The position numbers and the translations under genes are program-made. From positions 2,539,719 through 2,603,718 of the forward strand of contig OZ252020.1 in the NCBI GenBank assembly GCA_965247505.1: a stretch of DNA of 64,000 bases, written 5' to 3'. Source of the stretch: Micropepsaceae bacterium (GTDB lineage Bacteria; Pseudomonadota; Alphaproteobacteria; Micropepsales; Micropepsaceae). Shown piece by piece: positions 7,398-29,884 of this stretch; positions within the stretch are counted from its first letter, which is position 1; each line of letters starts with the position of its first letter. The notes beneath the pieces were generated by a model, which did no database searches, was not told where the DNA came from, and saw only the letters and a list, made by a program, of their open reading frames with translations.

Positions 7398-7438
7398 TGT
7401 TCACATTCCTCGATTGTTATGTTCCAAATCCAGATCTG

Positions 7439-7543: not shown

Positions 7544-7558
7544 ATGTAAGGCCTCCGA

Positions 7559-8962
7559 TTACAGATAGGGTAGCAGGCGTCCGCCCATGATTACGCCGGT
7601 CCAAGCCGCGAGAATTAGAATAGACGTCAGTTTAGCGCTGATCGCGGCATCGTCGCCCGCCTTTAAACTCCAAAGGTGGCTCGACGTGGTGTAGTAAAGT
7701 GCCGCCACGCCGCCGATGGCGAGAAACGCGACCTTGGGCGCAAATGTCGTATTGTTCACATAGCGATAGGTGTCGGCCAACAATATAAGCATGCCGCTGA
7801 ATACGTTTATCAGAAATCCAAAGAAGGCGAGCGGAAGCACGCGATGGACGGACGAATAGGGTAGGAATTTCCAAAGACCCAAAATACGCAGCGTAATAAA
7901 CAGCACCGAGCCGAATAAAAGCGAATAGCCGAAGAAATGCAGCGTCTGCCAGGGCACGAACCAGGTGATGTTATTGATCGCCGTTTCGATGGCGGGGCTC
8001 CAGAAACCGGTAATGGCATCTTCGGGAAAGACATCCGATGCCGAGCGTATTTCGGGGTGACTAATAAGGCCGCCGCGATGCCCGGTTTCCGCCATGATGC
8101 CTAATGTGATCAGCGCAGAGCCCAAAACGACATAAAGGGCGCGATTGCAAAAACGCTCGACATGCCGGTAGCGCCATAGCTCCATCCAGGCCAAACCGCC
8201 GGTGATGGCCAGGCCGAAAAGCGTCAACAACGCCATGTCACGATGGGCATTAATCGCGCTTGCGGAAAACTCAGGAATCGGCGGCAAGGTCAGCGCCCAC
8301 ATGGATGCCGCGCCCGTGACATAAGTCGGAGCGCCCAGAACAGCGCAGATTGCGAAAATCGCTAGCCCAATTCGTTTTAACGTGTCGTCATCTTTTAGAA
8401 GCGCCGTGATGAAAAGCGCTAGACCAATCACAAACCCAGCTGTTGGGAAGTGATTTAAAATCATATGGACATGCGACCAGCTTTGCGGAGTTCCACCGGA
8501 TTCAAAATCCGGACTAAGTTCGATGTGATTAATTTCCCAACCATTTAGTCCGACCAACGCCATCAAAGCGAGCGTAGCGACCGCCAAGCCCAGAACGACA
8601 AGAAGGATTTGGTTGGAGAGCTGCCCACCGCGCCGAATACGCCAGATCTCATAGGCGCTCGCGACGCCCGTGGCGACCAATATGGCAAGCGCCACCAATC
8701 CCCAATTGTAATGCGTGTCCATCATGGCCTGAGAAATATCAGGGACGGTGGAAAGCGCCGTCATCGAGCCGAGGCCGCTGACATAGGTCGGAATAGCCAA
8801 TAGCCCCAGAACACCAAAAAGTACCAGGCAAATCCGTTTGGTCAGCTCGCTATTGGTGATGAGCCCGGTGAGATAAGCGCCGAGAACAAATACAAGCCCG
8901 ATAGATGGAAATATGCTGACCAGAAGATGAAGATGCGACCAAGATGCCGGAATAATATGCAT
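7559..8962 (-). CDS. Polytopic membrane protein of unknown function with an internal duplication
   Basis: 467 aa with about 12 predicted TM helices. The internal repeat PTYVSGLGSMTALSTVPDISQAMMDTHYNWGLVALAI versus PTYVTGAASMWALTLPPIPEFSASAINAHRDMALLTLFGLAI indicates a tandemly duplicated domain. Confidence 0.55.
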   Translation of the reverse strand: MHIIPASWSHLHLLVSIFPSIGLVFVLGAYLTGLITNSELTKRICLVLFGVLGLLAIPTYVSGLGSMTALSTVPDISQAMMDTHYNWGLVALAILVATGVASAYEIWRIRRGGQLSNQILLVVLGLAVATLALMALVGLNGWEINHIELSPDFESGGTPQSWSHVHMILNHFPTAGFVIGLALFITALLKDDDTLKRIGLAIFAICAVLGAPTYVTGAASMWALTLPPIPEFSASAINAHRDMALLTLFGLAITGGLAWMELWRYRHVERFCNRALYVVLGSALITLGIMAETGHRGGLISHPEIRSASDVFPEDAITGFWSPAIETAINNITWFVPWQTLHFFGYSLLFGSVLFITLRILGLWKFLPYSSVHRVLPLAFFGFLINVFSGMLILLADTYRYVNNTTFAPKVAFLAIGGVAALYYTTSSHLWSLKAGDDAAISAKLTSILILAAWTGVIMGGRLLPYL

Positions 8963-14049: not shown

Positions 14050-14104
14050 GCCGGTTGCGAGATTCATAAGCAGCTTATTGTCATAGCCAACGCCCGCTTT
14101 GGGT

Positions 14105-15769
14105 CCAGGCTGTGTGAAAACGCGTTGGCTGGTATGATTCTTCTGTGATTTGGTGGAGGGGTCGATGAAGCGCTTTGTAGTTGGCGATGATCGCAGTTAA
14201 AGCACTCTTTTTCCTGAGCGGCTGGATGAGTATTTGGGCGATGACAACCCGGTTCGGGCGATTGATGTCTTGGTTGATGAGCTTGATCTGGGGGAATTGG
14301 GCTTTAGCGGGGTTGAGCCGGAGGCGACGGGAAGGCCTGCCTACCATCCGGCGACGCTGCTGAAGATCTACGTCTATGGATACCTCAATCGGGTCCAATC
14401 GAGCCGTCGCCTAGAGCGGGAGTGCCAGCGCAATCTCGAGCTCCTATGGCTGACCGGCCGCCTGATGCCGGATTTCAAAACTATCGCCGATTTCCGCAAG
14501 GACAACGGCGGGGCCATCCGCAAGGTCTGCCGTGCGTTCGTAGTGTTGTGCCGTCGCCTTGAGCTGTTCAGTGAGGCGAGCGTTGCGATCGATGGCAGCA
14601 AGTTCAAAGCGGTCAATGCGTGGGATCGGAACTTCACGCAGGCCAAGATGCAGCGGCGGTTGAAGCAGATCGACGAGAGCATTGCGCGCTACCTCTCGCA
14701 GCTTGATAGCGCCGATCGCCAGGGCGAAGCGGTGCCGGAGGCCAAGATCACGCGGCTCAACGAGAAGATTGCGATGCTGCGCCAAGAGATACAGCGCCTG
14801 AATGCACTGAACGTTCAGATGATGCAGAGCGAGGACAAGCAGATCTCCCTGACAGATCCCGATGCGCGCTCGATGGCCACGAGCGGCCGGGGCAGCGGGA
14901 TGGTCGGTTATAATGTGCAAAATTCCGTGGACACGACGCATCATCTGATCGTTTCCCATGAGGTGACCAACAAAGGCTCTGATCGGGGTCAGTTGTCGGG
15001 CGCTGCCGCGCAGGCGCGCACGGCCATTGGTTCTGAAACCATCGAGGCTGTTGCCGATCGCGGCTATTACGCCGGCGAAGAGATCCTGGCCTGCGAGGAG
15101 GCCGGCATAACGGTCTATCTCCCGAAGCCCCTGACCTCAGGGGCCAAAGCCGCAGGGCGTTTCGGCAAGCAGGACTTCGTCTATGTCGCCGAAGACGATG
15201 TCTATCTTTGTCCCAACGGTGAGCAGCTCACCTATCGCTATACCAACGAAGAGGCCGGTAAGATGCTGCGCCGCTATTGGACGGCTGCCTGTCAGGCGTG
15301 TGCGCTGAAAAGCAAGTGCACGACGGCTCGGGAGCGCCGGATCTCACGTTGGGAACACGAAGCCGTCCTTGAGAGAGTTCAGGCGCGGCTCGATCGAAAT
15401 CCGGACAAGATGCGCGTGCGCCGCCAGACCGTGGAGCATCCCTTCGGTACGATAAAGTCGTGGATGGGAGCGACGCACTTCCAGATGAAAACGCTCGAGC
15501 ACGTCGGCACCGAAATGGCGCTGCACGTTCTGGCCTACAACATGAAACGCGTGATGAAGATTCTTGGCGTTGGCGGATTGATAGAGGCGATCCACGCATG
15601 AGACGGGCTCAGGGGGCCCCATAACCCAGCATTCTTCGCATCAAGGAGCCGTTAGGCATCTCCGCGGACCGATTTTACTGAATTGGACGCGTCGGGTCGC
15701 ATAATCCCGCCCCGACCTCCGCTTACGCTACCAACCACCAGACCCGACCACCTTTTCACACAGCCTGGG
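14105..15769 (+). mobile_element. IS1182-family insertion sequence
   Basis: Terminal inverted repeats CCAGGCTGTGTGAAAA (14105-14120) and TTTTCACACAGCCTGG (15754-15769) flank a single transposase gene. The N-terminal signature MKRFVVGDDR.STLFPERLDEYLGDDNPVRAIDVLVDELDL and the C-terminal HPFGTIK motif are those of the IS1182 family. Confidence 0.7.
14165..15601 (+). pseudogene. IS1182-family transposase interrupted by an in-frame TAA at codon 12 (14198-14200)
   Basis: The ATG at 14165 reads MKRFVVGDDRS-TAA-STLFPERLDEYLGDDNPVRAID. The stop replaces the conserved Gln (CAA) of the family N-terminus. The remaining 467 codons are intact (the track ORF restarts at TTG 14234). Confidence 0.65.
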
Positions 15770-15775
15770 TCAGGA

Positions 15776-15920: not shown

Positions 15921-16718
15921 CTAAAAATCATGCGCCGAGGCTGTAGGAATATCGAATACTCCGCCTGAAGGGTCCTTGTTGTTCTCTGCACACGCAGACT
16001 CGTGAAATGGCGCCGCGGGCCAATAGGTCGCGCGCGCTGACCAGGGTGTGGTGAACAGTTCAGGGTCTTCAATAGTGAGTTCTATTGCAATCGCGCTGCG
16101 GTCGGGCGCAATCGTATATCGTTCGACAATGTGCAAATTCTCGCTTCGTGGCGTGCCAAAGCGGTCTACGAGTGCGACGTCATTCTGGCCGATCGTATCG
16201 ATAACCAAACTATCAGAGCCTTCGTAATGGCCGGTAGAATGGCCGTACCATGTCCGGGGAGAATTATTGGCATGCCCTTCGTTGAGATAGACATGCCGCA
16301 CTTGATTGTCGCGCTCGTAAATGATCGTCACCTTGTCGGGCGACTGAAGAAATTGCAGTGGATCGTTCATGTTGACCACTAACGGCACGCCGGGCGGCCA
16401 GCACAAGACCCAAGCGGGCTGACTAATGTTTCCCGAACGGCCGATTGCCGCATGCGCCGTAACTGCCGCCAGGGCCTCTGGTCCAAGTATGCGGTTGTCC
16501 AAATCCGCGATCCAGAAGGGGCCCGAATCCGCCGCGCGCATCATCGGCCCCGGCCCGCTTTCGGGAGCTTGGAACGATCGCCCTTCGGCGCTATCTGAAC
16601 GCGTCCAATAGCCGGTGAAATTCGGGATTTCAGTTTCTTGTGCGGCGATACTCGCCGGAGAAATCAAGACGAACAGTCCGGACAGTATTAGGAGATGGCG
16701 GCAAATCGATCTGCGCAT
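15921..16718 (-). CDS. Secreted protein, member of the WYGESxGHYEGD paralog family
   Basis: Signal peptide MRRSICRHLLILSGLFVLISPASIAAQ. Family motifs WYGHSTGHYEGSDSLVIDTIG and FGTPRSENLHIVERY are present. Confidence 0.6.
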   Translation of the reverse strand: MRRSICRHLLILSGLFVLISPASIAAQETEIPNFTGYWTRSDSAEGRSFQAPESGPGPMMRAADSGPFWIADLDNRILGPEALAAVTAHAAIGRSGNISQPAWVLCWPPGVPLVVNMNDPLQFLQSPDKVTIIYERDNQVRHVYLNEGHANNSPRTWYGHSTGHYEGSDSLVIDTIGQNDVALVDRFGTPRSENLHIVERYTIAPDRSAIAIELTIEDPELFTTPWSARATYWPAAPFHESACAENNKDPSGGVFDIPTASAHDF

Positions 16719-16846
16719 TGCGATGCCCTCGGAGCCGCCCAGTTAAGCAAAACCATATTATCGCGGCTCAGCGTAGCGCAGTTTGGCCTGACGGCTCCTT
16801 TAGTACCAGCGGTTTAGGGTGCGACATGTCCGCTTTACCTTTGCGG
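16671..16846. repeat. 176-bp direct repeat, copy 1. Copy 2 is at 17575-17750 and is nearly identical.
   Basis: Two mismatches over 176 bp. Copy 1 covers the start codon, the signal-peptide-coding 5' end and the upstream region of the family gene 15921-16718. Confidence 0.85.
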
Positions 16847-17160
16847 TCTCAATGGATCAACGCAACACTAGCGGCAGGCCTCTCTGCCGGGGGTTAGAAC
16901 CTCAAAGTCTTTCAGGACCGTTCTTGAGCCGTCCGGCCACTTTTCTCGGATGCGAGAGCGAATAGACCGAAAACACAGCACTCTTCAGAAAGCGTTATCA
17001 GAGCAGGCGTTTGACGTTCCCATTGGAGCTGGGCTGGCAGTGATTCCACGGCCCAGGCTTCTCGTGCAAGGTGAACCACGGACTATGCCTTTGGCTCGTA
17101 AGCACAAACTCAGACTCCTCCGTTTGCGCCAAGGTGTTGCGTCGACCGGTTGAGGCGGCA
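16842..17160. repeat. Roughly 320-bp inverted repeat, copy A. Copy B is at 22579-22888 in reverse complement.
   Basis: Identical 67-aa and 63-aa spurious ORFs appear in both copies (16950-17153 + equals 22576-22779 -). Nucleotide identity is near 100 percent across the core. The two copies flank a 5.4-kb gene block. Confidence 0.85.
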
Positions 17161-17221
17161 CTTTGAGAGCGGACATCGGTGCTGCACCAATTAGGACACT
17201 TAGCTAGAGAAATTAGGACGC

Positions 17222-17536
17222 TCACTCAAGATTCCGCTGGCCTTTTCGCAGGCCACAATTGAAACATTGTTTGTTGAAAGCGGTAACCCCTCCTAGGAAC
17301 CCCCATTTAAAAGAAAAGGGTTCGCCACATTTGGGGCATAGGAATGCAGAGTGCCACAGGAAGGGAACAAAAAGTGCGACAACGTCCCATGGAGCGAAAT
17401 AGGCCCAATCAATATTTTGAAAAAAGAATGGGCCAGCGAACCACGTGGTCACAAAAGAGACGAAAGTGCCCAACAGGAGGGCGCGCCTAAAATCTAGGTC
17501 GCGCCACGCTCGCTGGTATAGGACTTCTTTCGTCAA
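17222..17536 (-). CDS. Small membrane protein with a C-terminal zinc-ribbon (CPKCG...CFNCG)
   Basis: 104 aa with two hydrophobic helices followed by two CxxC pairs. The segment is AT-rich. Confidence 0.4.
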   Translation of the reverse strand: MTKEVLYQRAWRDLDFRRALLLGTFVSFVTTWFAGPFFFQNIDWAYFAPWDVVALFVPFLWHSAFLCPKCGEPFSFKWGFLGGVTAFNKQCFNCGLRKGQRNLE

Positions 17537-17574
17537 AACTGCCCGCCCTCAATTACCCTGAACCGAACAGTCCG

Positions 17575-17750
17575 GACAGTATTAGGAGATGGCGGCAAAT
17601 CGATCTGCGCATTGCGATACCCTCGGAGCCGCCCAGTTAAGCAAAACCATATTATCGCGGCTCAGCGTAGCGCAGTTTGGCCTGACGGCTCCTTTAGTAC
17701 CAGCGGTCTAGGGTGCGACATGTCCGCTTTACCTTTGCGACCTCAGGTGA
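17575..17750. repeat. 176-bp direct repeat, copy 2, carrying a truncated remnant of the family gene 5' end
   Basis: On the minus strand it encodes MRRSICRHLLILSGLFGSG-stop, i.e. only the signal peptide of the 15921-16718 paralog. Confidence 0.8.
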
Positions 17751-17786
17751 TCGATGCACCGCAGCATGGATGTCCGCTTATGGCAC

Positions 17787-17845
17787 TAAGCAGACATATT
17801 GCACTGCAACATGGATGTCTGCTCTCGGGGGCAAAGTGGACATTC
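17787..17845. repeat. 60-bp imperfect inverted repeat, right copy. Its partner is at 15776-15838.
   Basis: See the left copy. Together they bracket the 15839-17786 segment. Confidence 0.7.
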
Positions 17846-17981
17846 GGCTCGGTCCTAGAAAAGAGGCCGGTAAAGCGTTTTCGGCATGAGGCGATGTTCA
17901 TCGACTCTGGGGCGTGATGAATTAGCAGTGAATTCGCAATGACACTCGGCGGTTCTGGCGCCTGATGGAGCCAGGTGCGAT

Positions 17982-18911
17982 TTACGGGACTGCACCCGTG
18001 AGCTCTTGATAAATCCTGCGCACCATGACTTCCCTTTGCGGGAGGGTGCCGCCTCCAAACAAATCATATCCAGTCATGCCTTCATATTGTTGAAGGAGAA
18101 TACGAGCCGCGACTTCGTCTTCTGTCGCTCCTTGCGCAATCTCTCTCTCAACGGCATCGCGCGCTTCGACCATAATTTGGCGGGATCGAACCAGCGCCTG
18201 CCGGGTTACTTCAGGCTCGTTCACCGTCCATGCTCCGTTTCCGGGAACGATAATGTCGGCCTCGAGGTTCAAGATGAAATCGATCGCGTTTATCCAGTTG
18301 AGAGTTCCTGAGTCCATGAACGGAAACCGCTCGTAGAAAAACACCTCACTCGTATAGACGATCCGGTCTTGAGGAACGAAAACGATGCTGTCGCCCCGCG
18401 TGTGCGCGGGGCCAACATGGATAATCTGAATTTCCTTGTCACCGACGTGAAGCGTCATGCGCTCAGCGTAGGTCAGATCGGGAAGTATGGCCTCTTGTTG
18501 CGGTGTCGGAACATCATTGCCTCCTAGCAGATCGGCCTTGTAGTCCTCCTGGCCAATATTAATGGCATCTTGATAGGCGACGTTACCGCGCGAATAATTG
18601 CCGTGGTTTGATGAGGAAATCAGATAGCGAACAGGCTGCCCAATAATATCGGATATCAGTTGCCGTTCATGCATCGCCATGGCTTCGTTGCTTAAAGCAT
18701 CAACCACCACGACTCCTTCGTTTGTGACAATTACGCCGCTGATACGGGGATCGGAAAGATACGCATAGTGACCGGGGATAATCTGTTCGAGGGTTCCGGA
18801 TTGTGCGTCGTTGGAGGCTTGCGCGAGTGCGCGATTGAGCTGCGCATCCGTTACGAAGATGCCGAGGCTCAAGGGGAGTAAAAAAACGAGAAACATCATC
18901 GATTTGGGCAC
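17982..18911 (-). CDS. Secreted MBL-fold metallo-hydrolase (metallo-beta-lactamase superfamily)
   Basis: Signal peptide MPKSMMFLVFLLPLSLGIFVTDAQ. The motifs HVGPAHTRGD and SSNHGNY (His/Asp metal ligands) are present. 309 aa. Confidence 0.7.
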   Translation of the reverse strand: MPKSMMFLVFLLPLSLGIFVTDAQLNRALAQASNDAQSGTLEQIIPGHYAYLSDPRISGVIVTNEGVVVVDALSNEAMAMHERQLISDIIGQPVRYLISSSNHGNYSRGNVAYQDAINIGQEDYKADLLGGNDVPTPQQEAILPDLTYAERMTLHVGDKEIQIIHVGPAHTRGDSIVFVPQDRIVYTSEVFFYERFPFMDSGTLNWINAIDFILNLEADIIVPGNGAWTVNEPEVTRQALVRSRQIMVEARDAVEREIAQGATEDEVAARILLQQYEGMTGYDLFGGGTLPQREVMVRRIYQELTGAVP

Positions 18912-19052
18912 GACTATGTCCTCCTGTCGAAAAACGCACTAGCCAAACAAGATCGCATTTCCAGGAAAGTCGGTCTATCCGACCTTCCCACTGCTTAGCC
19001 GCTCTAGCTAGTGAGATCGATCTCGCGAATGGTCTTGTCCGCACGCAGAACA

Positions 19053-20153
19053 TTATTCCCAGTGCGGTGTTCCACCCGCCTCGAGATAATCTTGGAACCG
19101 CCTGTCGCTCTCGTCGTAAAACGTGCCCCAGGGGCGCGGATCAGTGGCGTCCCAGTCGAGCTGCTCGCCCGGAACGCGATGGTTGAGAAAACCGTTCTCG
19201 TCCAAATAGACTGTTGGTGACGGGCCGTTGGTGTCGGTGCACGTCACATAGAGCGGCCGAAATTCGGGACGCGTCTCCGTCTCGAGCCTGAAATTGTGCT
19301 TGGCGTGGTAGGGACGCACAAAGACCTCCGGGTCGTAGAGCGTGACTTCGCCCTCGATAATATCGCCCACGCGCCGGTAGCGCTCCACCGTCTCCAGATT
19401 GTCGGTGTGTTCCGAGGGCCCACCGAACCATCCTTTCACCTGATTGGTGTGAATGATGAGGGCATCGCCGTCCCAGAAGCCTACCGATTCGCCGTGCCAT
19501 TTGGGATATTGCAACTCCTGCGAACTGTGTCCACTGCCGTCGGTGTATATCCAGCGGATGTAGTTCACGCCGACGCTTGAGGCCAAGGTCCAAACCTTTT
19601 CCGGCGTTACGATGAATTCATCGACATTCGTTAGCGCAGACATGAACCCGCCGGGCAGGCAAAAGGCGCCCGCCCACCAGGGACGCGCTTGGGCTTCGGC
19701 CCGCACGTCCTGAATGAAATATTCCTGATGTTGCGGCGTCAGTAATGCGACGGTCGAACTTACGGGGTTCTGTCCGCCACCGAACGCGCCCCGCTCGTGC
19801 GCCCAAACGCCGCTCCAATCTGGGATCGTATCCTTGGTATGTTGTGTGCCGCCGTCTGCCTCCTCGCGCCAAGCCTGGTAGTGCTCCCAGGCCGTGGCAA
19901 AAGAATAGGGGCTCGTATGTTCGCGCGAGCCAGGCACGCCCGTGCCCGTCGTGCCGTAGGATGCGGGATCTTCGCCCATCCCACGCATCTCGCTGTTGGT
20001 ATTGTGCCGATAATAGGCCGGATCGGTCCAGTGTTCGCGGTCTGCACGAAAATCCTCGGTCGTGAAGATGTCTTGCGCGGTTGCGCTATAGGCAAAACCC
20101 GCGAACAGCGTAACCAGCGAAACCGTCGCCGACAGAGAAGCCCGCATGATCAT
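19053..20153 (-). CDS. Secreted protein, long (about 370 aa) subtype of the paralog family
   Basis: The start at MIMRASLSATVSLVTLFAGFAYSATAQ (ATG 20153) follows a GGAGG RBS. The motifs KWHGESVGFWDGDALIIHTNQ and EHTDNLETVERYRRV are present. It is paralogous to 57341-58501 (EEHYNAWLEAADGGTEH versus WEHYQAWREEADGGTQH). Confidence 0.6.
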   Translation of the reverse strand: MIMRASLSATVSLVTLFAGFAYSATAQDIFTTEDFRADREHWTDPAYYRHNTNSEMRGMGEDPASYGTTGTGVPGSREHTSPYSFATAWEHYQAWREEADGGTQHTKDTIPDWSGVWAHERGAFGGGQNPVSSTVALLTPQHQEYFIQDVRAEAQARPWWAGAFCLPGGFMSALTNVDEFIVTPEKVWTLASSVGVNYIRWIYTDGSGHSSQELQYPKWHGESVGFWDGDALIIHTNQVKGWFGGPSEHTDNLETVERYRRVGDIIEGEVTLYDPEVFVRPYHAKHNFRLETETRPEFRPLYVTCTDTNGPSPTVYLDENGFLNHRVPGEQLDWDATDPRPWGTFYDESDRRFQDYLEAGGTPHWE

Positions 20154-20219
20154 TCCTCCTGTCTGAATCCGGACATATGGCTTTTGCCCCGGAGGGCACC
20201 TGTTATTCGTAGATGCCAA

Positions 20220-20588
20220 TTATTCGTGGATGTAAGTATTCCCATCGGCGCTGGTGATCGTCGTGAAGCTTCCGCCCGGGCGGCCGTCTCTTAAGGGGTG
20301 CATGTTCACACTAACTGCGTCACCATCCGCGAATGTGTTTAAGTTCATTCCCCCGCGGAGCATGGTCGGAATGTTCACCATCTCGATCCAATATTGCACG
20401 GTCTCGCCGTTTTCCTCTTCGACATCGACATAGAGGAAGGCGTGCGGATTGCTGAACACATATCCGGACACGGTCCCGTTGATGGTCACATCACTAGTGT
20501 TGTCGAACATCGCGTGGCTGTGGTGCGCTAATGCTGCCGGCGCGACCAGCAAAGGCCAGGTGAGTATTACGAAATAGATGCCTCTCAT
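20220..20588 (-). CDS. Small secreted protein whose predicted mature N-terminus is HHSHAMFD (unknown family). It lies immediately upstream of a paralog-family gene.
   Basis: Signal peptide MRGIYFVILTWPLLVAPAALA, then HHSHAMFDNTSDVTINGTVSGYVFSNPHAFLYVDV... Total length is 122 aa. It is paralogous to 25838-26219. Confidence 0.55.
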   Translation of the reverse strand: MRGIYFVILTWPLLVAPAALAHHSHAMFDNTSDVTINGTVSGYVFSNPHAFLYVDVEEENGETVQYWIEMVNIPTMLRGGMNLNTFADGDAVSVNMHPLRDGRPGGSFTTITSADGNTYIHE

Positions 20589-20712
20589 AGCTCGGTCCTC
20601 TGGGTGCTAATGCGATCTTTGGCGGTGGGGAGCAAGACTACTGCACTATGGGCACCTCATCCAGGGATTTTAGATGTCCGGGAACCGGAAACGGAGATCC
20701 TCAGAGCGATAT

Positions 20713-22437
20713 CTATCGCACTTGCACTTTCACGATTTGCGAGGGCGGACGATAGGAGGGGATCCAAAGCGTCGGCCGTTCGGTGCCGGGCTCCACCGTT
20801 AAATCGCGCATCACATAGGGGCGCGGCATAAAATATTCGACCGACTCGCCGGTTTCCATATCGATGCGGAAGAGGCGATTGGCGTTGAAGTCCGTCGTCC
20901 AAACCCATCCGTTTTCATCATCCACCGAAAGCGTATAGGGCGCGGCATAGGGCGGGTCATAGGCCTCGGTTCCGGGAAACATAGGATATTCTTTCATCTC
21001 ACCGTTGTCGGGATTGAAGCGCATAATCCGTCCCGCATAAAAAAGCGGCGTCCAGAAATTTCCCTCGGCGTCCATCTCGCCACGCCGCGGTCCCGATTCC
21101 GGCGTTGAAATTTCATAGAGTTTGTATTCGTCGTTCGTGGGATCGAAGACGCCGATTTGGCCGCCCCGCCATATATTGATGATGGTTCGGGCTTTCGAAT
21201 CCGTCTCCATGTCATAGACGCCGTCATTATAGGGGATGGGGTGTGTGATCACCTCGCCATTGTTCAGATTGAGCTCGAAGAGCGGGCCGCCTTCATTGGT
21301 GTGCCAAACATGATCATTGGAATCGAGCCCGAACATGCTGGCGCCCGACGGCCATTCGTCGAATATTTCGGTAACGGGATTGTAGCGCACCGTTGCCATG
21401 TCCATACCGATAATGAGATTGCCTTGGCTGTCGGCCAATAGATCGTGGGACCCGCCACCGGGATTGCCGGCGCGAATTTCACCCGGCGCCGCGTCCGTCA
21501 CCCGACCGCCGCCCGGCGGAATGGCATAGGCAAGTTCGACCACCTCGCCGGTGTTCTTGTCCAACCGTCCCAAAGCATTGGAAAAATGATCCGTGTACCA
21601 AGCATATTGCTCGTCGATGACAACATCATGCGGCCAAACATGGCGTGCGTCGCCGCGCAGCATGAAAAGCTCGCGCTCGCCGCCACGCGGCAGATCATAT
21701 TCGGTCAGGACAAGGCGCGTGGCCTCCTCGGAGGTCGGGCGCGGGCGCAATTCAAAGGGGATGACATCGGACGATCCCGGCCCGCGAATAGAGGTGATGT
21801 ATTCCGCGAGCGGCTCGATGAAGCGCATCTGGCTAAAATTCAAGGATTTAGGGAAGTTCTGTGACGTTCTTGCCCGCCCGCCCATGAGGTGAATAATTTC
21901 TGTCCAGCCCGCCTGATCATATTCGAAGCGCAATGCGCGCTGAATCGAGTGGCAGGTGCTGTATTGCGAAAACAACACTTTCTCACGGTCCGTCCCGGGA
22001 AGCGCCGCCACAATCTCCGATGCGGTCGCGTCTTCGATCGAGGGCTCGCGCGCGATCAGCGCGAAATCCGCATGCGCGGAAGACCCCTCGCTCAGCGCGA
22101 CGGCGTCTTGGTGAACATGCCCATAATCGGGAAGCTCTATGGAAAGCGTATGCGCGCCCGCGGACAAATCGGACCAAGCGGGGAAGGAATAGATTCCATC
22201 GCCATTGCTATAGACAACGACGCTGAAACTCTTGCCGTCTCCGCGAGCACGTATGGGAATGCCGGCGAGCGCGTTGCCGTCTTGCGATGTAATGCGGCCA
22301 TAAAGAAGCGCGTCTTGTTCGACGCCTGCGAATTCGTCACTCGGCGAGCAATTCGAAACAATTGCGAGAAGTGCAAAAGCAGCTATAGCCCGCAAGGCAC
22401 CGCGGCTCCTAAATATCGACAATGGCATGATTTCCAT
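20713..22437 (-). CDS. Secreted protein with an N-terminal carboxypeptidase-regulatory-like beta-sandwich and a C-terminal beta-propeller (Vgb-lyase/NHL-like)
   Basis: 574 aa with a signal peptide. The segment LYGRITSQDGNALAGIPIRARGDGKSFSVVVYSNGDGIYSF resembles the CarboxypepD_reg fold. The downstream repeated blades are Gly/Asp/Trp-rich. Confidence 0.5.
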   Translation of the reverse strand: MEIMPLSIFRSRGALRAIAAFALLAIVSNCSPSDEFAGVEQDALLYGRITSQDGNALAGIPIRARGDGKSFSVVVYSNGDGIYSFPAWSDLSAGAHTLSIELPDYGHVHQDAVALSEGSSAHADFALIAREPSIEDATASEIVAALPGTDREKVLFSQYSTCHSIQRALRFEYDQAGWTEIIHLMGGRARTSQNFPKSLNFSQMRFIEPLAEYITSIRGPGSSDVIPFELRPRPTSEEATRLVLTEYDLPRGGERELFMLRGDARHVWPHDVVIDEQYAWYTDHFSNALGRLDKNTGEVVELAYAIPPGGGRVTDAAPGEIRAGNPGGGSHDLLADSQGNLIIGMDMATVRYNPVTEIFDEWPSGASMFGLDSNDHVWHTNEGGPLFELNLNNGEVITHPIPYNDGVYDMETDSKARTIINIWRGGQIGVFDPTNDEYKLYEISTPESGPRRGEMDAEGNFWTPLFYAGRIMRFNPDNGEMKEYPMFPGTEAYDPPYAAPYTLSVDDENGWVWTTDFNANRLFRIDMETGESVEYFMPRPYVMRDLTVEPGTERPTLWIPSYRPPSQIVKVQVR

Positions 22438-22578
22438 AAAGCTAAACTTTCATGAGCGTTCCGGTACCGGGCCGTATTCTCGACATCCATAGTCCGAGCA
22501 CTGAATGCTACGCTTGGGGAGGGACCTGCTTCAAGCAGCGCTGCGGTGGCCCAATGTCCGCTCTTGGCTGCCGCCTCA

Positions 22579-22888
22579 ACCGGTCGACGCAACACCTTGG
22601 CGCAAACGGAGGAGTCTGAGTTTGTGCTTACGAGCCAAAGGCATAGTCCGTGGTTCACCTTGCACGAGAAGCCTGGGCCGTGGAATCACTGCCAGCCCAG
22701 CTCCAATGGGAACGTCAAACGCCTGCTCTGATAACGCTTTCTGAAGAGTGCTGTGTTTTCGATCTATTCGCTCTCGCATCCGAGAAAAGTGGCCGGACGG
22801 CTCAAGAACGGTCCTGAAAGACTTTGAGGTTCTAACCCCCGGCAGAGAGGCCTGCCGCTAGTGTTGCGTTGATGCATTGAGACCGCAG
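22579..22888. repeat. Roughly 320-bp inverted repeat, copy B (partner 16842-17160)
   Basis: Reverse-complement identity to copy A. Confidence 0.85.
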
Positions 22889-23056
22889 CACTCAGCGAAC
22901 ATCCCTAGTCATCTGGGTAACGTCTGCGTCCGGCAGGCAGTGCGGATATGGGGACTAAAATCCGGGGAATTTATTGGTTTTCGATGTGGGTTGCGCGCTC
23001 CGCCTATGCGCCCCTATAGCTCACTGTGTTACTGATAGGCTTAATTTGGAGCCGCC

Positions 23057-24154
23057 ATGAATCGATTTATTGCCCTCGCTATTGCTGTTTTTGGCGCTTG
23101 CGCTAGTGCTTCAATATTGAGCGCACAAACTGCCGATTACCAGCGCCTGCCAAGAGAGGTGCTCGATGTCATGCCGCCGACGGAGCGGGTAAGGGGTATC
23201 CCTGGGCAGATGACTATGCGTCCGCTTGCCTGTCAGAATATGCCAATCGCAGAATCGCGCAGGCGCATTGTGGACATAGCGGTCCAGGAGTGGGGTTTTT
23301 TCGGGTTTCCGATAACCGACCTGACGGATTTCGACGACGAATTGCCTTCTCAAAGAACCGCGGCGCTTTCCAATCAGGCAAACATCTACGGATTTTCTTT
23401 TAATCCATTGCGCAGGGGCGGGCGCTTCCCGGCACTTCCCCAAGAAGAGACTTCGCGTGTTGCAAGCTCGGTTGCAGGCTATTGGGCTGCCACGCCGCGC
23501 GGGGCCGCGATGATTGAACGGCAGAACCAAGAGTGGAACGGGCCTCGGGGTTTGGCAGGGCGATGGGCCGACCCCTGGTCTGCCGCATTCGTGTCCTGGG
23601 TGATGTGCGAAGGCGGTCTGGGGGATAGCGGCCAATTTCAGCGCGCAATTGCGCATTGGACCTATATTGATCAGGCGATTAACGCGCGCGACGGACGTGC
23701 ACCGCAAAGCGGTTTTGTTGCTTATGATTTGGGAGAGCAGCCCATCGAGCCGGGAGATCTTCTATGCAGTGGCCGTCGGCCCGCTTACCGCAACATTGCG
23801 CAGCGCCGTCGGCAGCTTGGAGTAGGCACGAGGACACATTGCGATATTGTCGTCAAGCTTGACGAGTCCCAAGAGCGGATATTTACGGTCGGCGGAAATG
23901 TGCGCCGCGCGGTAACTCTAAAGCTCTTCTCAGCCGAACGGGATGCAAGCGGAAAATTACGTCCCGCCGAACCTCCGGAGAATGGCGATATGCGTCCGCT
24001 TTTCGCGCACCTAAAGCTTCGCGCCGATCCCATTGGGCCGGGCGCGCTTGATAGCAGTCCAACCATCAGCGCCCTGGACTGCGAATTTAAGTTTGAAGAA
24101 CGCCATCCCGCGTATAATCTTATGCCCGTAAGCTTGGCCGAAGGTGAGTGCTAA
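23057..24154 (+). CDS. Hypothetical secreted protein
   Basis: Signal peptide MNRFIALAIAVFGACASASILSAQ. 365 aa with a conserved-looking HCDIVVKLD segment. No confident family assignment. Confidence 0.45.
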   Translation: MNRFIALAIAVFGACASASILSAQTADYQRLPREVLDVMPPTERVRGIPGQMTMRPLACQNMPIAESRRRIVDIAVQEWGFFGFPITDLTDFDDELPSQRTAALSNQANIYGFSFNPLRRGGRFPALPQEETSRVASSVAGYWAATPRGAAMIERQNQEWNGPRGLAGRWADPWSAAFVSWVMCEGGLGDSGQFQRAIAHWTYIDQAINARDGRAPQSGFVAYDLGEQPIEPGDLLCSGRRPAYRNIAQRRRQLGVGTRTHCDIVVKLDESQERIFTVGGNVRRAVTLKLFSAERDASGKLRPAEPPENGDMRPLFAHLKLRADPIGPGALDSSPTISALDCEFKFEERHPAYNLMPVSLAEGEC

Positions 24155-24208
24155 GCCTGCGTGCGCCAGGGTGAGCGAACATCTATAGATTTCGGAGTTT
24201 ACCGGGCC

Positions 24209-25060
24209 TCAGAAATCCAGCCTGGTTGCGGTCGGCATTGGATATTCGCCGCCCGTCAAGATATCGAGATTGCTCTCGGCACAATAAAATTCTTCGAACA
24301 TGGGCGCCCCCATTATCCGGTGCAGAATACGCGAGCCAGTCCAAACTTCCGTGAACGCCTCCGGATCGTCGACACTATATTGAACCTCAATTGTCTCACC
24401 ATCTTCTAGTAGAGCGTAGCGTTCGACGACATGCAGCTTTTCGCTGTGCGGCGTCTGAAAATCATCCACCACCGTTCTGTCGTTCATGCCGATGGTGTCC
24501 ACTACCAGTGTGTTGCCTTCGAAGTGACCGACCGATTCGCCGTACCAGCTGGGCGTAATGTTTTCGGAATGAGATACATCCAGATAGATGTATCGCATCT
24601 CCGGACCCTCCATATGATGGATTGTTACCTGGTTCTCTGTCTGCAGAAACTCGATGGGCTGACCGCCAAGCTCAACAATTGCGGGAACACCGTTGGGCCA
24701 GCAAAGTGATCGGGCCGGCAGAATGACTTCCCCCGCGATTCGTCTGTCGACTACGTCCTTCAATGCTTCCGCGGTCCTTGGCTGGAGAAGCGGATCCGTC
24801 ACATCCGCTATTGCCGGGACCGGCGCCTGCCGGACGCCGCCCACACCGCGGCTGCCCCTTTGCTCGTAATCCGGGTGCCGGCGAACACCAGACCGACCGG
24901 GAGGCTCGGCATCCTCGGCGCGCCAAATACCGGAGAAATCAGGGCCAAGAATCGTCGAAACATTGTTGGGTTGGGCTTGGGCCTCGGCGAAAACGACTGC
25001 GCCGATAGCGACGATAATCGCGGTACTTATTAGCGAGTAAAACCTTGTCACTTCCGGCAC
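24209..25060 (-). CDS. Secreted protein, member of the WYGESxGHYEGD paralog family
   Basis: Signal peptide, then LCWPNGVP, WYGESVGHFEGNTLVVDTIG and FQTPHSEKLHVVERY. Confidence 0.6.
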   Translation of the reverse strand: MPEVTRFYSLISTAIIVAIGAVVFAEAQAQPNNVSTILGPDFSGIWRAEDAEPPGRSGVRRHPDYEQRGSRGVGGVRQAPVPAIADVTDPLLQPRTAEALKDVVDRRIAGEVILPARSLCWPNGVPAIVELGGQPIEFLQTENQVTIHHMEGPEMRYIYLDVSHSENITPSWYGESVGHFEGNTLVVDTIGMNDRTVVDDFQTPHSEKLHVVERYALLEDGETIEVQYSVDDPEAFTEVWTGSRILHRIMGAPMFEEFYCAESNLDILTGGEYPMPTATRLDF

Positions 25061-25075
25061 TCCTTCCCGCGAGGC

Positions 25076-25810
25076 TCAATTCGGCGCGTTCACGCCTGGA
25101 ATATGTGAAATATCACGATGTTCGTCTCCGCAAACATATTCCTGAAGACGAATATCGGGATGCAGATCGTAGACAAAACGTGCGCTCCAGGCCTCAGTAA
25201 AGACTATGGGATCGTCTACCGTCACCATTATTTCAAGGCTATCGCTGCCCAGCTTGCGGACACGTTCCACCGTGCGCATCTCGGCGCTATGCGGCACACC
25301 TGTCGCGTCAATGAATGTCTTATCCTTGTAGCCGGCGGTTTCGATCACAAGGGTATCGCCTTCCCACTGGCCAACGGAGTAACCCGAATAGAATGGAATA
25401 TTTTCGAGGAGTTCCTCCGACGGCATGGGAATGTCGAGCATCACGCGCCGCATCACTCGGTTAAGTTCATAGGCCATACTGACCTGTCCGGGGGTCTGAA
25501 TGATCTGGAACGGGTAGGGATTGCCCAAAATACGCGGCACGCCGTCGGGCAGACAGAGTCTGCGCGCCTCGTCGCTCAACGGGTCTTCCTGAAGGGCAGA
25601 CATATTGCTCTCATATTGCGCCCGTCCAATCTCGGTGAACGGAAGCGCATTCTCACCGACCAGACGGATCGCCGGGCTATAGCTCTGTGTCCACCACACG
25701 CCTGAAATGCTCTGTGCTTCAGCCGGCTCGGCGCTGTCGGCAGATCCGGTCAGCAAGGACACGACCATCATGGCTGACGCCAATGATATTGTGAGCGTTT
25801 TTTCGGTCAT
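25076..25810 (-). CDS. Secreted protein, member of the WYGESxGHYEGD paralog family (divergent copy)
   Basis: Signal peptide MTEKTLTISLASAMMVVSLLTGSADSA, then LCLPDGVP, YSGYSVGQWEGDTLVIETAG and GVPHSAEMRTVERV. Confidence 0.6.
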   Translation of the reverse strand: MTEKTLTISLASAMMVVSLLTGSADSAEPAEAQSISGVWWTQSYSPAIRLVGENALPFTEIGRAQYESNMSALQEDPLSDEARRLCLPDGVPRILGNPYPFQIIQTPGQVSMAYELNRVMRRVMLDIPMPSEELLENIPFYSGYSVGQWEGDTLVIETAGYKDKTFIDATGVPHSAEMRTVERVRKLGSDSLEIMVTVDDPIVFTEAWSARFVYDLHPDIRLQEYVCGDEHRDISHIPGVNAPN

Positions 25811-25837
25811 GATAATTTCGTTTCGAAATACTATTTT

Positions 25838-26219
25838 CTAATCGTACTCTTCCGCCAACGCTCTTCCGTCCGGAAGCGTAATCGAGTCAAGCGTCCCGGC
25901 ATAATCGCCATCATGCGTTGGAAAAATGGATACCGAAATCTCATCGCCTGCGACAACGGTATCGCTTCTCCAACCCCTGCGAAACAGGCGGGACGGATTA
26001 CTCATTTCGATCACATATTCAACCGACTCACCATTTTCATTGGCAGCCATTACGCGCAGCCAGCTATGGGGGTTAGTCCACTCGAAACTCGATACGGTGC
26101 CCTCTACCGCTACCGTCCTGGTGAAGTCAAACATCGCATGCGAATGATGTCCAAATGCGGGCACCGCCAAGAATACAAATCCTATGCTAGCTAGGCTTAA
26201 GGTCTTCGTGTTCATCATT
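25838..26219 (-). CDS. Small secreted protein whose predicted mature N-terminus is HHSHAMFD. It is paralogous to 20220-20588 and lies immediately upstream of two family genes.
   Basis: The ATGATG at 26214-26219 follows a GGGAGG RBS. The signal peptide MMNTKTLSLASIGFVFLAVPAFG is followed by HHSHAMFDFTRTVAVEGTVSSFEWTNPHSW... Confidence 0.55.
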
Positions 26220-26445
26220 ATCCTCCCGGCAGAGCTAATAAAAACCCCACAAATGGAACCAACCTGTCTCATAATATACGCAGATTAGGGGTTCCACAAT
26301 CGCGGCTTAACAAGTGTGATTCCAGCCGGCCTATTGTCGGGAAACAAGGCTTCGCCATTGGCGATTTTGGCCGCCGGATAGCTGCTCGGGAAAACAGCCG
26401 GTCCTGCTTACCTAAGGCTATCCATCCGATCTTACCGATGGGAAA

Positions 26446-26522
26446 TGGTACAGTTGGGTGGGTTTGAACCGCCGACCTCCGGATCCACAATCCGGCGCTC
26501 TAACCAACTGAGCTACAACTGC
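26446..26522 (-). tRNA. tRNA-His (anticodon GTG), alphaproteobacterial type with no encoded G-1 and an A73 discriminator
   Basis: The reverse complement gives GCAGTTG-TA-GCTC-AGTTGGTTA-GAGC-G-CCGGA-TTGTGGA-TCCGG-AGGTC-GGCGG-TTCAAAC-CCACC-CAACTGT-A-CCA, a cloverleaf with a GTG anticodon. The T-stem has one C-A mismatch. The upstream nucleotide is T, not G. Confidence 0.8.
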
Positions 26523-26676
26523 ACAAGACTTCCAAACAAGCTTATCGCTAAACCGCGGTGAAACTATGTACGCGCCTGTGTAAAAGCAAGCCACCTGCGC
26601 GAAATCGCGCGCTCTTCGGCCCATTGCAGCATAGACTCACCGCCAATGCCGAGGGGGGCCTCGGAAGGTTTGGGGC

Positions 26677-27594
26677 ATGGCGGAAGATCTCGCAAAAATA
26701 GCAGCAAATTTGGAGCGAAGTGGCCAGCCGCTCTGGTTGTGGGAGCCAAAGCGGCGGCGAATCATATGGGCCAATGGCGCGGGCCGCGAATTCTGGGGCT
26801 CGCAGTCACTATTCGATCTCGCCGCTCGCTCTTTTGCCGCTCAAGGCCCGGAAGCCCGCACCATGGCGATGACCGGCTCCAATATCGAGACCAGTTTGAG
26901 CCTCCCCGGCGGGCGGGTCTCGGCCTTGCTCGATATCGCCGAGATCGAATTGCCCGAATTAGGTGAAGCCCGGCTGGTTCGCCTCTCGCGCATTCAGCCG
27001 GCGCCCGCCAAGCCTTCGGGCGCGCATGCGAGCGATCTTTTTCAAACCGCCCCGATCGGACTTTGTCTTATGGATCCGCAAGGGCGGCCGCTCGATGAAA
27101 ATCGTGCTTGGGGCAAGCTTACGGGCGGTCCGCGGCGCGCGCTTGGCGCTTTGGCCGGCGAAGAGGTGGCGGCTCGCTTTCTTCTTAGTTGCATCACAAA
27201 TGGCCGTGCGGAATTCAGTATCCAAATTGAATCCAGGCGGCTTCGCCTTTTTGGAAAACGGCTCAAGCAGGCCGACGGTTCGATGCCGCTCATCTATGTT
27301 CGCGGCGAAGACGTAACGGTGGGACACGCGCTGGGAATGCTGTTGACGCAATTGGCACAAAACGCGTCTGCTGGAGATGAGGATTCTGCAATGACTGATC
27401 CGGCGCAATTGCCGGCGTCCGGTCAAGTGTTGCCCCTTGCAAAAACAGCGGGTAACGGCGAAGCAAAATCCGATTTTGTCTCGCTGCTCAGCCATGAAAT
27501 GCGAAACCCCCTTTATGAGATTATTGGATTTTCCGAGATCATGCAGCAGGGGCATTTCGGCCCCTTAGGCAATGCGCGTTACGAGGCCTATTCG
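26677..27594 (+). pseudogene. PAS-domain sensor histidine kinase, 5' portion, interrupted by an IS256-family insertion
   Basis: It ends in the HisKA H-box SLLSHEMRNPLYEIIGFSEIM...NARYEAYSR. The reading frame continues seamlessly at 29045 once the IS and one TSD copy are removed. Confidence 0.7.
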
Positions 27595-29044
27595 AGGGGA
27601 TGTCCCGGTCGATGTTGAAAAGTTGAGGTAGGTGTCGCTCTCCTGGAGCCGTTAGGCTCCGGGTGCTGCAAACCCAAAAGGGAGAACGACACCATGGGAA
27701 ATAATATCCGTAGTTCCAGCCGCCCGAAAGCCCTTGCCCCCTCGATTCCTATGCCGCCGCTGGCGGACGCGATGGACGCAGTCCATCTCAGCGTGGATCG
27801 GTTTTGTCTTCTGGCCGGGGTCTAGGCCTTGGCCGAGATGATGGAGGAGGACGCCACGACCGTGTGCGGGGCCCGACATCGCCGCCATGGGGACCGTCGA
27901 GGTTATCGCTGGGGCAGGACACATAGCGAGATCGGCTACCACGGCGGCAAAGTGAAGGTGGCCCGGCCACGGGTTCGTGACCGGGCGGGCAAAGAGGTGA
28001 GCTTGGAGAGTTGGCAGGCGCTACGCGATGCCAACCTGCTACTCGAGTGGGCGCTCAACCTGATGGTGCTGAACGTGTCGATCCGCAAGTACCACCGCGC
28101 GGTCCGTCTGCCCGAGGGCGACCTGGCGAAAGCGCGTGGCGACGGCACCTCGAAGTCGGCCGTTTCCCGGCGCTTTGTGGCGCTGTCACGCAAGAAGATG
28201 AAGGCCTGGCTCGCCTCGGATCTCTCGGAACTCGACCTGCTAGTCATCCAGATCGACGGTCTGCATGTCGGCGACCATGTCCTGATGGCGGCGATCGGCG
28301 TCGATGGCAACGGCGACAAGCATGTCCTGGCCGTGGTCGAGGGGGCGACGGAGAACACGGTCGTCGTCCAGGCCTTGATCGACAATCTCCTCGCCAGGGG
28401 GCTCGATCCGACACTGCCGCGGCTGTTCATCGTCGATGGCGCGAAGGCACTCAGCAAAGCGATCCGAAACACCTTCGGTGTGGCCGCCGCCATCCAGCGC
28501 TGCCAGGTCCACAAGGGCCGTAACATCATCGGGCGCCTGCCCCAACATTTGCACGCGAGCGTCAAGAAGGCGCTCCGTCAGGCCTGGGACCAGGACGACG
28601 CAAACAAGGCCGAGCGGCTCTTGCGCAACCTGGTCCGGCGTCTGGAGCATGAGGAACCGGGCGTCTCGGGCAGCATCCTGGAGGGGCTGGAGGAGATCCT
28701 CACCGTCATCCGCCTCGGCCTACCGCACGAACTCCGGCGCTCGCTCGCCTGCACTAACATCGTCGAGAACGCGCTCGGCACGGTGCGCCAGGTCACCCGC
28801 AACGTCAAACGCTGGAGACACGCCGAGATGGCGCTCAGATGGACCGCCGCCGGCCTGCTGGAGGCCCAGAAAACCTTCCGTCGCCTCAAGGCCTATCGCC
28901 AGCTGCCCATCCTCCGAAATGCTCTCCAGGAACACTTGAGAAAGGCTCAGGCCGACAGTGCCATTGAAACCATCATGAAGGCAGCATAGCATCATCAACC
29001 AGCGACGCCTGCCCCACGAATTTCAACAGAGATAGGGACATCGC
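27595..29044 (+). mobile_element. IS256-family insertion sequence with an 8-bp target site duplication CCTATTCG
   Basis: Direct repeats CCTATTCG at 27587-27594 and 29045-29052. The imperfect terminal IRs are TGTCCCGGTCGATGTTGAAAAG... and ...CTTTCAACAGAGATAGGGACA. The transposase is of the mutator/IS256 type (GYRWGRTHSEIGYHGGKVKVARPRVRD). Confidence 0.7.
27694..28989 (+). pseudogene. IS256-family transposase with an in-frame TAG at 27823-27825
   Basis: The ATG at 27694 reads MGNNIRSS...LSVDRFCLLAGV-TAG-ALAEMMEEDATTVCGAR. The stop falls within the conserved N-terminal region of the family, and the downstream 386 codons are intact. Confidence 0.6.
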
Positions 29045-29658
29045 CCTATTCGCGCGATATCCGTCTCAGTGCAGAACGTCTTCTCACCTTGGTGAACGAA
29101 TTGCTGGACTTGGCGCGCATCGAAGCCGGTCAACTTAAGCTGGAGTCTAATGATGTCGCGCTGGAGCCATTGGTTGAGGAGTGTGTGCGGCTACTTCAAC
29201 CCGAGGCGACGAAGTATTCTCTCACCCTCGAGAAAGAAATTTCGACCGAGCTTCCCAATGTCATTGGTGACTTGCGTTCGCTCCGTCAGGTGCTGATCAA
29301 TCTAGTTACCAACGCGATTAGATTTACCGGCGAGGGCGGGTGCATAAGCGTGTCAGCCCAGCTGGCCGATGACGGCGCGCTGATTGTTTGCGTCGCCGAT
29401 ACCGGCATCGGCATGAGCAACCGCGAAGTGCAACAGGCGTTAGAGCCGTTCGGGCAGATCGAGGGAGCCGCTCAGCATGGAGACGAAGGGCCGGGCTTGG
29501 GCCTTTGCGTTGCCAAAGCGCTGGCGGAAGCGAACATGGCCGAGTTTCGGATCATGGGCGAGCCGCGCCGCGGCACTCAGGTTGAATTGCGCTTTCCGCC
29601 CGAACGGGTTCAAGAAGTGAAAGAAGGCGGCTCCGACGCCACTGCAGCCACCGGATAG
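29045..29658 (+). pseudogene. Sensor histidine kinase, 3' portion (HATPase_c), continuation of 26677-27594
   Basis: AYSRDIRLSAERLLTLVNELLDLARIEAG (X-box), then the N-box LINLVTNAIRF and the G-boxes DTGIGM and GLGL. Confidence 0.7.
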
Positions 29659-29776
29659 GCTCCGCTTTGGCCTCGCAGCGCCTTTTGCCGGATTTGTGCT
29701 AGATCAAATTATTCGGCTAAATGTCTTGGGATATTGATCCGACGCCCAGCCAAAATGCGGGCGCATTGGAGGCACC

Positions 29777-29884
29777 ATGTTCCCACTGGATTTTATGGAA
29801 TCTTACTTGATGCTAGTTTTCATTATTTTCATGACCCTTATTGTCATTGGCGTCGGTACGCTTGCGCGCAAGGGCGGGGAATAA
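29777..29884 (+). CDS. Small hydrophobic peptide (35 aa), hypothetical
   Basis: GGAGG lies 5 nt upstream of the ATG at 29777. Translation is MFPLDFMESYLMLVFIIFMTLIVIGVGTLARKGGE. The segment is AT-rich and is followed by a hairpin plus T-tract at 29983-30013. Confidence 0.3.
   Translation: MFPLDFMESYLMLVFIIFMTLIVIGVGTLARKGGE

Follow-up and report, generated by a model that had tools for sequence, protein, structure and literature searches.

An IS256-family insertion in an orphan histidine kinase gene of a Micropepsaceae-like alphaproteobacterium, with a private stop codon in the inserted copy

In the 64,000-nt stretch of DNA analysed here (the window), the gene for a sensor histidine kinase is interrupted by a 1450-bp insertion sequence (IS) of the IS256 family. 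The IS is flanked by an 8-bp target duplication, two related public assemblies have the empty site, and the transposase frame carries a TAG that is private to this assembly (Table 1). We consider it very probable that the element entered an orphan kinase gene in one sub-lineage, knocked the gene out and later acquired its private stop. The element would have entered the reading frame of an orphan kinase that is soluble and has the domains PAS (putative), HisKA and HATPase_c, by copy-out/paste-in with a DDE transposase if family membership is a guide (PMC7780238), doubling the 8-bp target CTATTCGC. The insertion would have parted the helix that bears the phospho-acceptor His273 from both the other helix of the DHp domain and the ATP-binding domain, and so knocked out the kinase gene. 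The event would date to a single sub-lineage within a Micropepsaceae-like alphaproteobacterial species, the gene staying intact in sister lineages. Later, in the window's own lineage, a G>T change would have turned Glu44 (GAG) into TAG, and five further private substitutions would have accrued alongside it. The resulting copy would no longer yield a functional transposase, but with both ends preserved it could be moved in trans by the many intact copies elsewhere in such genomes.

Table 1. Features of the interrupted kinase gene, the inserted element and the second IS of the window
Feature	Position	Strand	Description and basis
IS1182-family element	~14100-15772		NF033551, 449 bits against a cutoff of 270
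Kinase 5′ fragment	26677..27595	+	Codons 1-306 and the junction base; ORF list, Pfam on the rejoined protein
Left target duplication copy, CTATTCGA	27588..27595	.	Last base a private C>A; empty sites, sister assemblies
IS256-family insertion sequence, 1450 bp	27596..29045	+	Ends shared by 17 other full-length copies
Left terminal inverted repeat, GGGGATGTCCCGGTCGATGTTGAAA	27596..27620	+	25 nt, 80% complementary to 29021-29045; contains subterminal motif TGTTGAAA
Leader stem-loop	27631..27693	+	Inverted repeat, 13 nt, 92% complementary
Transposase frame, 431 codons, broken at codon 44	27694..28989	+	PF00872; homology to P0125
In-frame TAG, GAG (Glu44) elsewhere	27823..27825	+	Other copies and same-site sister copies
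Right terminal inverted repeat	29021..29045	-	Paired with the left end; copy comparison
Right target duplication copy, CTATTCGC	29046..29053	.	Comparison with other copies and sister assemblies
Kinase 3′ fragment	29046..29658	+	Second DHp helix and HATPase_c, to a TAG stop

The interrupted kinase gene and its uninterrupted relatives

The open reading frame that begins at ATG 26677 encodes a histidine-kinase N-terminus and meets a stop at 27618, eight codons inside foreign DNA. The annotated 5′ stump includes this stretch of the IS (313 aa, C-terminus ...AYSRGCPGRC and then the stop), and the same 313-aa product is also found in public collections. The 3′ fragment is annotated elsewhere as a 188-aa product starting MNELLDL (P0264). 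Deletion of the insert and one copy of the repeat yielded an uninterrupted 507-aa ORF with the junction ...NARYEAYSRDIRLSAERLLTLVNELLDLARIEAG..., and Pfam placed HisKA across that junction (residues 263-332, E 9.5e-16), followed by HATPase_c (residues 378-490, E 2e-21). The two halves of the kinase thus rejoin in frame, as the earlier note on this DNA had proposed.

The rejoined protein is a kinase of the HisKA class, in which a DHp domain with the phospho-acceptor His273 precedes a HATPase_c domain with N, G1, F and G2 boxes; its conserved boxes include SHEMRNPL (272-279), NLVTNAIRF (389-397), DTGIGM (422-427) and GPGLGL (452-457). The break after codon 306 lies 33 residues beyond His273, between the two DHp helices, which agrees with the note's placement of the split between the H-box and the X-box; as it stands in the window, the split gene cannot encode a full HisKA/HATPase_c protein. 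Pfam gave a marginal match to PAS_8 (22.4 bits against a cutoff of 21.8, no single stretch being significant), and precomputed PAS matches are present in several homologues. The highest mean Kyte-Doolittle hydropathy over 19-residue windows was 1.52, too low for a membrane helix, so the kinase is soluble. Among the called genes of the syntenic annotated locus, which covers window-equivalent 17.8-38.2 kb (about 9 kb on each side), none has a response-regulator domain. The kinase is therefore an orphan, and the absence of an adjacent regulator noted earlier extends over that distance.

Among the NCBIfam models, PdhS and DivJ are the most similar to the DHp-CA core of the kinase (residues 262-492). 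In both cases the catalytic core alone aligns and the score is far under the equivalog cutoff (223 bits against 2000 for PdhS, 138 bits against 1000 for DivJ), so the kinase belongs to neither; its more distant homologues are labelled PleC by JGI. The likeness to PleC/DivJ/PdhS-type kinases extends to the soluble state, a putative PAS-type N-terminus and the lack of an adjacent response regulator. Unlike that type, the kinase has 260 N-terminal residues that are restricted to a small clade of uncultured alphaproteobacteria.

Two public contigs, L001 (ENA ERZ28669063 ctg8133) and L002 (ENA ERZ28763718 ctg125566, a 4.40-Mb contig), align at 99.5-100% identity to the window up to 27594 and again from 29045 onwards, the alignments overlapping by exactly 8 bp. 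Both have the uninterrupted IS256 site with a single target copy, reading ...GGCCTATTCGCGCG..., and L002 encodes an intact 507-aa kinase (P0263); the earlier note had asked whether relatives keep the intact gene, and this one, in a public assembly, does. The 90%-identity kinase cluster comprises the intact 507-aa forms P0261 and P0263; the 313-aa and 188-aa split forms, from the window contig and four other assemblies; a 394-aa form in L001, truncated by an IS1595-family element at window-equivalent 29302; and a frameshift-like pair of 96 aa and 376 aa (P0265, P0262). The IS256 insertion is present in the window and four sister assemblies and absent from L001, L002 and the P0261 contig. The insertion is thus clade-specific, restricted to a single sub-clade of a Micropepsaceae-like alphaproteobacterium from soil, and the earlier suggestion of an old, fixed insertion does not stand, the site being polymorphic.

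The same element occurs again in L002, 825 bp downstream (window-equivalent 29870-29877) and with its own 8-bp duplication. In the sister assemblies, the two halves of the kinase are on separate contigs with an IS copy beside each: unrelated sequence adjoins the right side of the copy at the 5′ half and the left side of the copy at the 3′ half. Either IS copies have recombined with one another, or the assemblies are chimeric at the repeat.

Near-identical assemblies thus contain three lesions of this gene: IS256 after codon 306, IS1595 at 29302 (L001) and the 96/376-aa frameshift. Within the species, differences in the kinase are mostly non-synonymous. From the lesions and these differences, kinase loss could be favoured or cost-free in some soil habitats, and the gene might be a recurrent target of inactivation in one species, although we think this unlikely. 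Alternatively, the three lesions are due to chance, the genomes being rich in IS and assembled from long reads at low coverage.

The stop codon in the transposase frame

Apart from the TAG at codon 44, the transposase frame is open from ATG 27694 to a TAG at 28987-89. Its product matches PF00872 (109 bits, cutoff 21, E 3e-31) and is 99% identical to P0125, an intact 431-aa protein that represents a 90%-identity cluster of 2208 members. This intact sister copy scores 223.9 bits with the NCBIfam IS256 equivalog NF033543 (cutoff 150), so the family assignment of the earlier note is confirmed by both models. The sole solved relative of P0125 is the ISCth4 transposase (6xg8). In the alignment with 6xg8_A, whose chain numbering equals the paper numbering plus 3, D248, C270/H273 and E358 stand opposite ISCth4 D241, C262/H265 and E348, residues whose roles in the D..D..E active site and the C/H motif we take from PMC7780238. 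The alignment begins past D175 of ISCth4, leaving the first aspartate outside the aligned stretch; going by the local motif only, the first catalytic aspartate is probably D181.

We scanned species-representative genomes with a 41-nt pattern around codon 44, obtaining 27 stretches in eight MAGs, and extracted 17 further full-length IS copies from the scan matches and other fetched loci. The variable base was G in all other pattern matches (29/29), giving GAG and Glu44. Copies at the same site in the sister assemblies also have GAG, whether it is the kinase 5′ half that adjoins them on the left (L030, L032 and L033) or the 3′ half that adjoins them on the right (L034-L036). The TAG, correctly read by the earlier note as in frame with ATG 27694, therefore stems from a private G>T substitution of this assembly. 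The 431-codon frame is open in 15 of the 17 other full-length copies. Relative to the copy consensus, the window copy has six private substitutions (E44stop, G113A, T130I, E280G and two synonymous changes), none of which hits a catalytic residue.

The N-terminal dimerisation domain of ISCth4 comprises residues 1-56 (PMC7780238). Judged by position and by similarity to IS256-family N-termini, with no alignment behind it, codon 44 would lie within the corresponding region, and a product restarted from TTG 27829 or ATG 27838 would be without it. With a stop at this point the window copy would have no working transposase and would be non-autonomous. As both ends of the element are intact, it could be mobilised in trans by intact copies.

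The second IS of the window, of the IS1182 family, bears an early stop too. The note's statement that both elements carry in-frame stops is correct, with a different codon and a different substitution in each: in the IS1182 transposase frame, the codon at 14198-14200 is TAA and corresponds to Gln12 of intact relatives of 478 aa (CAA>TAA). This change looks private as well; the intact IS1182 copy retrieved, in L037, sits at another locus than the window's.

Either the TAG is a real mutation, or the TAG at 27823, and perhaps also the IS1182 TAA, is a base-calling or polishing error in a transposase gene that is truly intact. After differences were polarised with the sister assemblies and L001/L002, 10.3 kb of flank in the window contained 22 private substitutions and a single 1-bp indel (about 0.2%). 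In the 1451 bp of the IS and its junction base there were 7 private changes; this density is about double that of the flank, a difference that is not significant (Fisher p = 0.08). Three sister assemblies (L030, L031 and L033) had zero private differences over 4.7 kb and were mutually identical, against about 0.2-0.5% private substitutions in the window. This discrepancy, the higher density within the IS, the finding of the TAG in this assembly alone and the nonsense changes in both IS copies are what sequence error would predict. So is the lack of a synonymous excess among the private changes, of which 10 were non-synonymous and 4 synonymous in the intact flanking genes.

However, variants of other lineages are similarly near-neutral (17 non-synonymous against 9 synonymous), so this ratio does not set the window apart and is uninformative as a test of error against mutation. 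Long-read sequencing errors are mostly indels, whereas the private differences of the window are 29 substitutions against 1 indel and rich in transitions (21, with 8 transversions), a spectrum that fits mutations better. Reads cross-mapped from other IS copies would restore GAG instead of producing TAG. No host selection keeps an IS intact, and one nonsense change in six or seven substitutions is not unlikely. The balance favours a real mutation over a consensus error, which we regard as improbable; the note's alternative of systematic base-call problems in IS copies is likewise not favoured.

Limits and anatomy of the element

Elements of the IS256 family, whose prototype is a Staphylococcus element, normally measure about 1.2-1.5 kb and have a single ORF, imperfect terminal inverted repeats and an 8-bp (sometimes 9-bp) target duplication. 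The 17 other full-length copies are about 98-99.4% identical, two of them differing by 2 bp in length, and the full-length copies have the ends GGGGATGTCCC...GGGACATCGCC in common, with the termini GGGG...CGCC. Irrespective of the flank, a C follows ...GGGACATCGC in 18 of 18 full-length copies, whereas the base preceding GGGGATGTCCC differs among copies and may be A, C, G or T. Once this terminal C is assigned to the IS, most copies have perfect 8-bp duplications (those in L002, L003, L006, L009, L019, L020, L021, L022 and L024). The invariant C and these duplications place the element at 27596-29045.

With these limits, the duplication in the window matches at 7 of 8 positions, the mismatch between CTATTCGA on the left and CTATTCGC on the right falling at 27595. 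Sister assemblies with the same insertion (L030-L033) have CTATTCGC directly followed by GGGG at the left junction, and base 27595 is therefore a private C>A. The earlier note had found the element and its place, and had the length of the duplication right; its limits need a shift of 1 bp, and the repeat that it took to be perfect gives way to a pair with one mismatch.

As first drawn, the element ran from 27595 to 29044 (A...CGC) between two copies of CCTATTCG. Both of those copies are indeed perfect, and deletion of 27595-29052 gives back the empty-site sequence equally well. Against this stand the C found after ...CGC in all 18 full-length copies, whatever their flank, the variable base ahead of GGGG, the perfect duplications gained in most copies by counting the C as part of the IS, and the left junction of the four sister assemblies. 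We consider the first-drawn limits very improbable; the perfect repeat of CCTATTCG, present at 27587-94 and 29045-52, arises by chance from the register chosen, the element's terminal C being identical to the base ahead of the target.

IS256-family members are copy-out/paste-in elements, and ISCth4 makes 8-bp target duplications (PMC7780238). The present element shares with ISCth4 and its family a single ORF of about 430 aa for a Mutator-type transposase with D..D..E and CxxH, an overall size near 1.45 kb, imperfect inverted repeats of roughly 25 bp at the termini, target duplications of 8 bp and a TGT..AAA-like subterminal motif in both ends (PMC7780238). Where the family has TGTAAA, the motif here is TGTTGAAA, at positions 18-25 of both element ends. 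Identity to ISCth4 is low, phmmer aligning residues 185-370 alone (E 6e-4), and the window copy differs from IS256-family elements in being inactivated by a nonsense codon.

The leader of the element folds unusually well (27596-27720, -49.6 kcal/mol, z = -3.4, 0 of 200 shuffles as good). The 3′ arm of the predicted stem-loop covers the GGGAGA ribosome-binding site just 5′ of ATG 27694, which suggests a putative function. A promoter and terminator scan of 26400-29800 gave one promoter-like site, facing outward close to the right IS end (28964-28992); shuffled sequence gives as many, and the site was rejected as evidence.

Neighbouring sequences and implications

An Rfam search of the whole window and of a 319-bp repeat returned nothing beyond tRNA-His and one chance-level match. 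Prompted by an adjoining IS110-type transposase gene in L002, we considered the 319-bp repeat as a non-coding, bridge-RNA-bearing end of an IS110 element. The idea found no support: in L002 all 319 bp form an independent unit bounded by inverted ends of its own, and the repeat folds no better than expected (z = -1.3).

Decoding of the in-frame TAG into a full-length transposase, whether by programmed read-through, a suppressor tRNA or pyrrolysine, has nothing direct in its favour, its sole basis being early in-frame stops in two transposase genes of one window, and we reject it as exceedingly improbable: the two stops differ in codon (TAG and TAA), all related copies have the sense codons GAG and CAA at those positions, TAG is a normal terminator of both the transposase and the kinase, and tRNA-His is the sole tRNA in the window.

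The insertion with its later private stop is a textbook case in which an IS disrupts a signalling gene that is not essential and the inserted copy then decays. This is a known kind of event, and it has little significance beyond annotation. For annotation, the 313-aa and 188-aa products in public collections are fragments of one disrupted 507-aa kinase, and the window transposase should be flagged as a pseudogene. Strains of this uncultured, Micropepsaceae-like bacterium from soil can be told apart by the insertion, by the private TAG and by polymorphic elements nearby. An IS256-family element of nearly identical sequence is spreading over several species-level alphaproteobacterial MAGs, where it reshapes loci or confuses assembly. 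If the kinase gene were a recurrent target of inactivation, insertion sequences would supply kinase-inactivating mutations in some soil habitats.

Insertions at the kinase locus

In a strain 99.5% identical to the window (L001), the histidine kinase lacks the IS256-family insertion; instead, an IS1595-family element truncates it within the N-box of HATPase_c (L001 ~7168-8201; window-equivalent 29302), and past this element the match of the contig to the window ends. In the related assembly with an intact kinase (L002), the same IS256-family element is found in a further copy that lies 825 bp further downstream, shortly after the kinase gene (L002 11745-13194; window-equivalent 29870-29877). 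This copy is bounded by the 8-bp duplication AGGGCGGA, and the matching unoccupied site in the window is AGGGCGGG.

Sister assemblies placed the two kinase halves on separate contigs (L030 and L032 versus L034 and L035), with each half adjoining an IS256 copy. On the far side of that copy the DNA is unrelated: L030 has molybdopterin oxidoreductase genes there, L032 has TonB-dependent receptor genes, and L034 and L035 have IS1595 plus a hydrolase gene. In addition, the copy in L030 has lost 108 bp internally. The split halves reflect either recombination between IS256 copies or mis-joining of the assemblies at the IS256 repeat.

In another sister assembly (L031/L036), the IS256 copy at the kinase site is split by a ~10.1-kb element, with a 14-bp repeat of IS256 sequence on each side and genes for a tyrosine integrase, an AlpA-like regulator, a portal protein and an S78 protease. 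In this one assembly, which has 3x coverage, the element would represent a small prophage or a satellite lying inside IS256, itself nested in the kinase.

Within the window, the leader of the IS256 element (27631-27693) forms a stable stem-loop (z = -3.4) with the transposase ribosome-binding site buried inside; as modelled, the fold could be a putative guard against translation of read-through transcripts from the host gene. Apart from tRNA-His (GTG), no RNA genes were found in the 64-kb window.

Positions of the tRNA gene, repeats and mobile elements (window coordinates unless another record is named)
Feature	Position	Orientation	Remarks
tRNA-His (GTG) gene	26446-26522	-	on the strand opposite to the kinase, whose start lies 155 bp away; upstream of the kinase
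IS1182-family element	~14100-15772		nonsense codon at 14198-14200
319-bp repeat, copy 1	22569-22887		
319-bp repeat, copy 2	16842-17160	reverse	
319-bp repeat, copy 3	L002 327-645		
REP-like motif, ATGTCCGCT...AGCGGACAT	15775, 15820, 16826, 17168, 17720, 17770, 22554; also 6664, 47886		
~10.1-kb element	ENA ERZ25068966 ctg557560, record 16500-26631		window-equivalent 27761-27774

A 319-bp repeat, IS1182 and REP-like hairpins

The three copies of a 319-bp repeat, two in the window and one in L002, are 99-100% identical and end in imperfect inverted repeats of ~27 bp (TGCCGCCTCAAC...GTTGAGACCGCA; termini TG...CA). Because copy 1 is present in four sister assemblies (L030-L033) and missing from L001 and L002, sequence comparison identifies the repeat as a strain-polymorphic, MITE-like element. 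Comparison with the empty site gave a 2-bp target duplication (GC) for copy 1, and 3-bp repeats lie on both sides of the remaining two copies. An Rfam search with the repeat returned no match, and its RNA fold was nothing unusual (z = -1.3).

The IS1182-family transposase in the window carries a nonsense change at codon 12 (CAA>TAA) and a second change, R>W (14617); intact relatives (P0276, P0277) are 478 aa. A copy at a different locus in a sister assembly (L037) is 99.3% identical.

A REP-like hairpin with a short palindromic motif is repeated across the intergenic DNA of the window. Its loop houses the 319-bp element in both window copies, and the motif also occurs on the right-hand side of the IS1182 copy, which suggests that these hairpins are preferred insertion sites.

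IS256 copies in other genomes

Among GTDB representative genomes (loci L003-L029), at least seven different MAGs at species level contain copies of this IS256 element with 98-99.4% identity, namely an uncultured Bauldia sp., five named 'Alphaproteobacteria bacterium' and one unclassified 'bacterium'; an eighth, JACZVL01, has a copy at 86% identity. Bauldia sp., CAUVXB02 and CBDFNA01 hold six to nine copies each, and several copies among these loci are without matching duplications. Together these observations point to an IS256 element that has recently spread horizontally and expanded.
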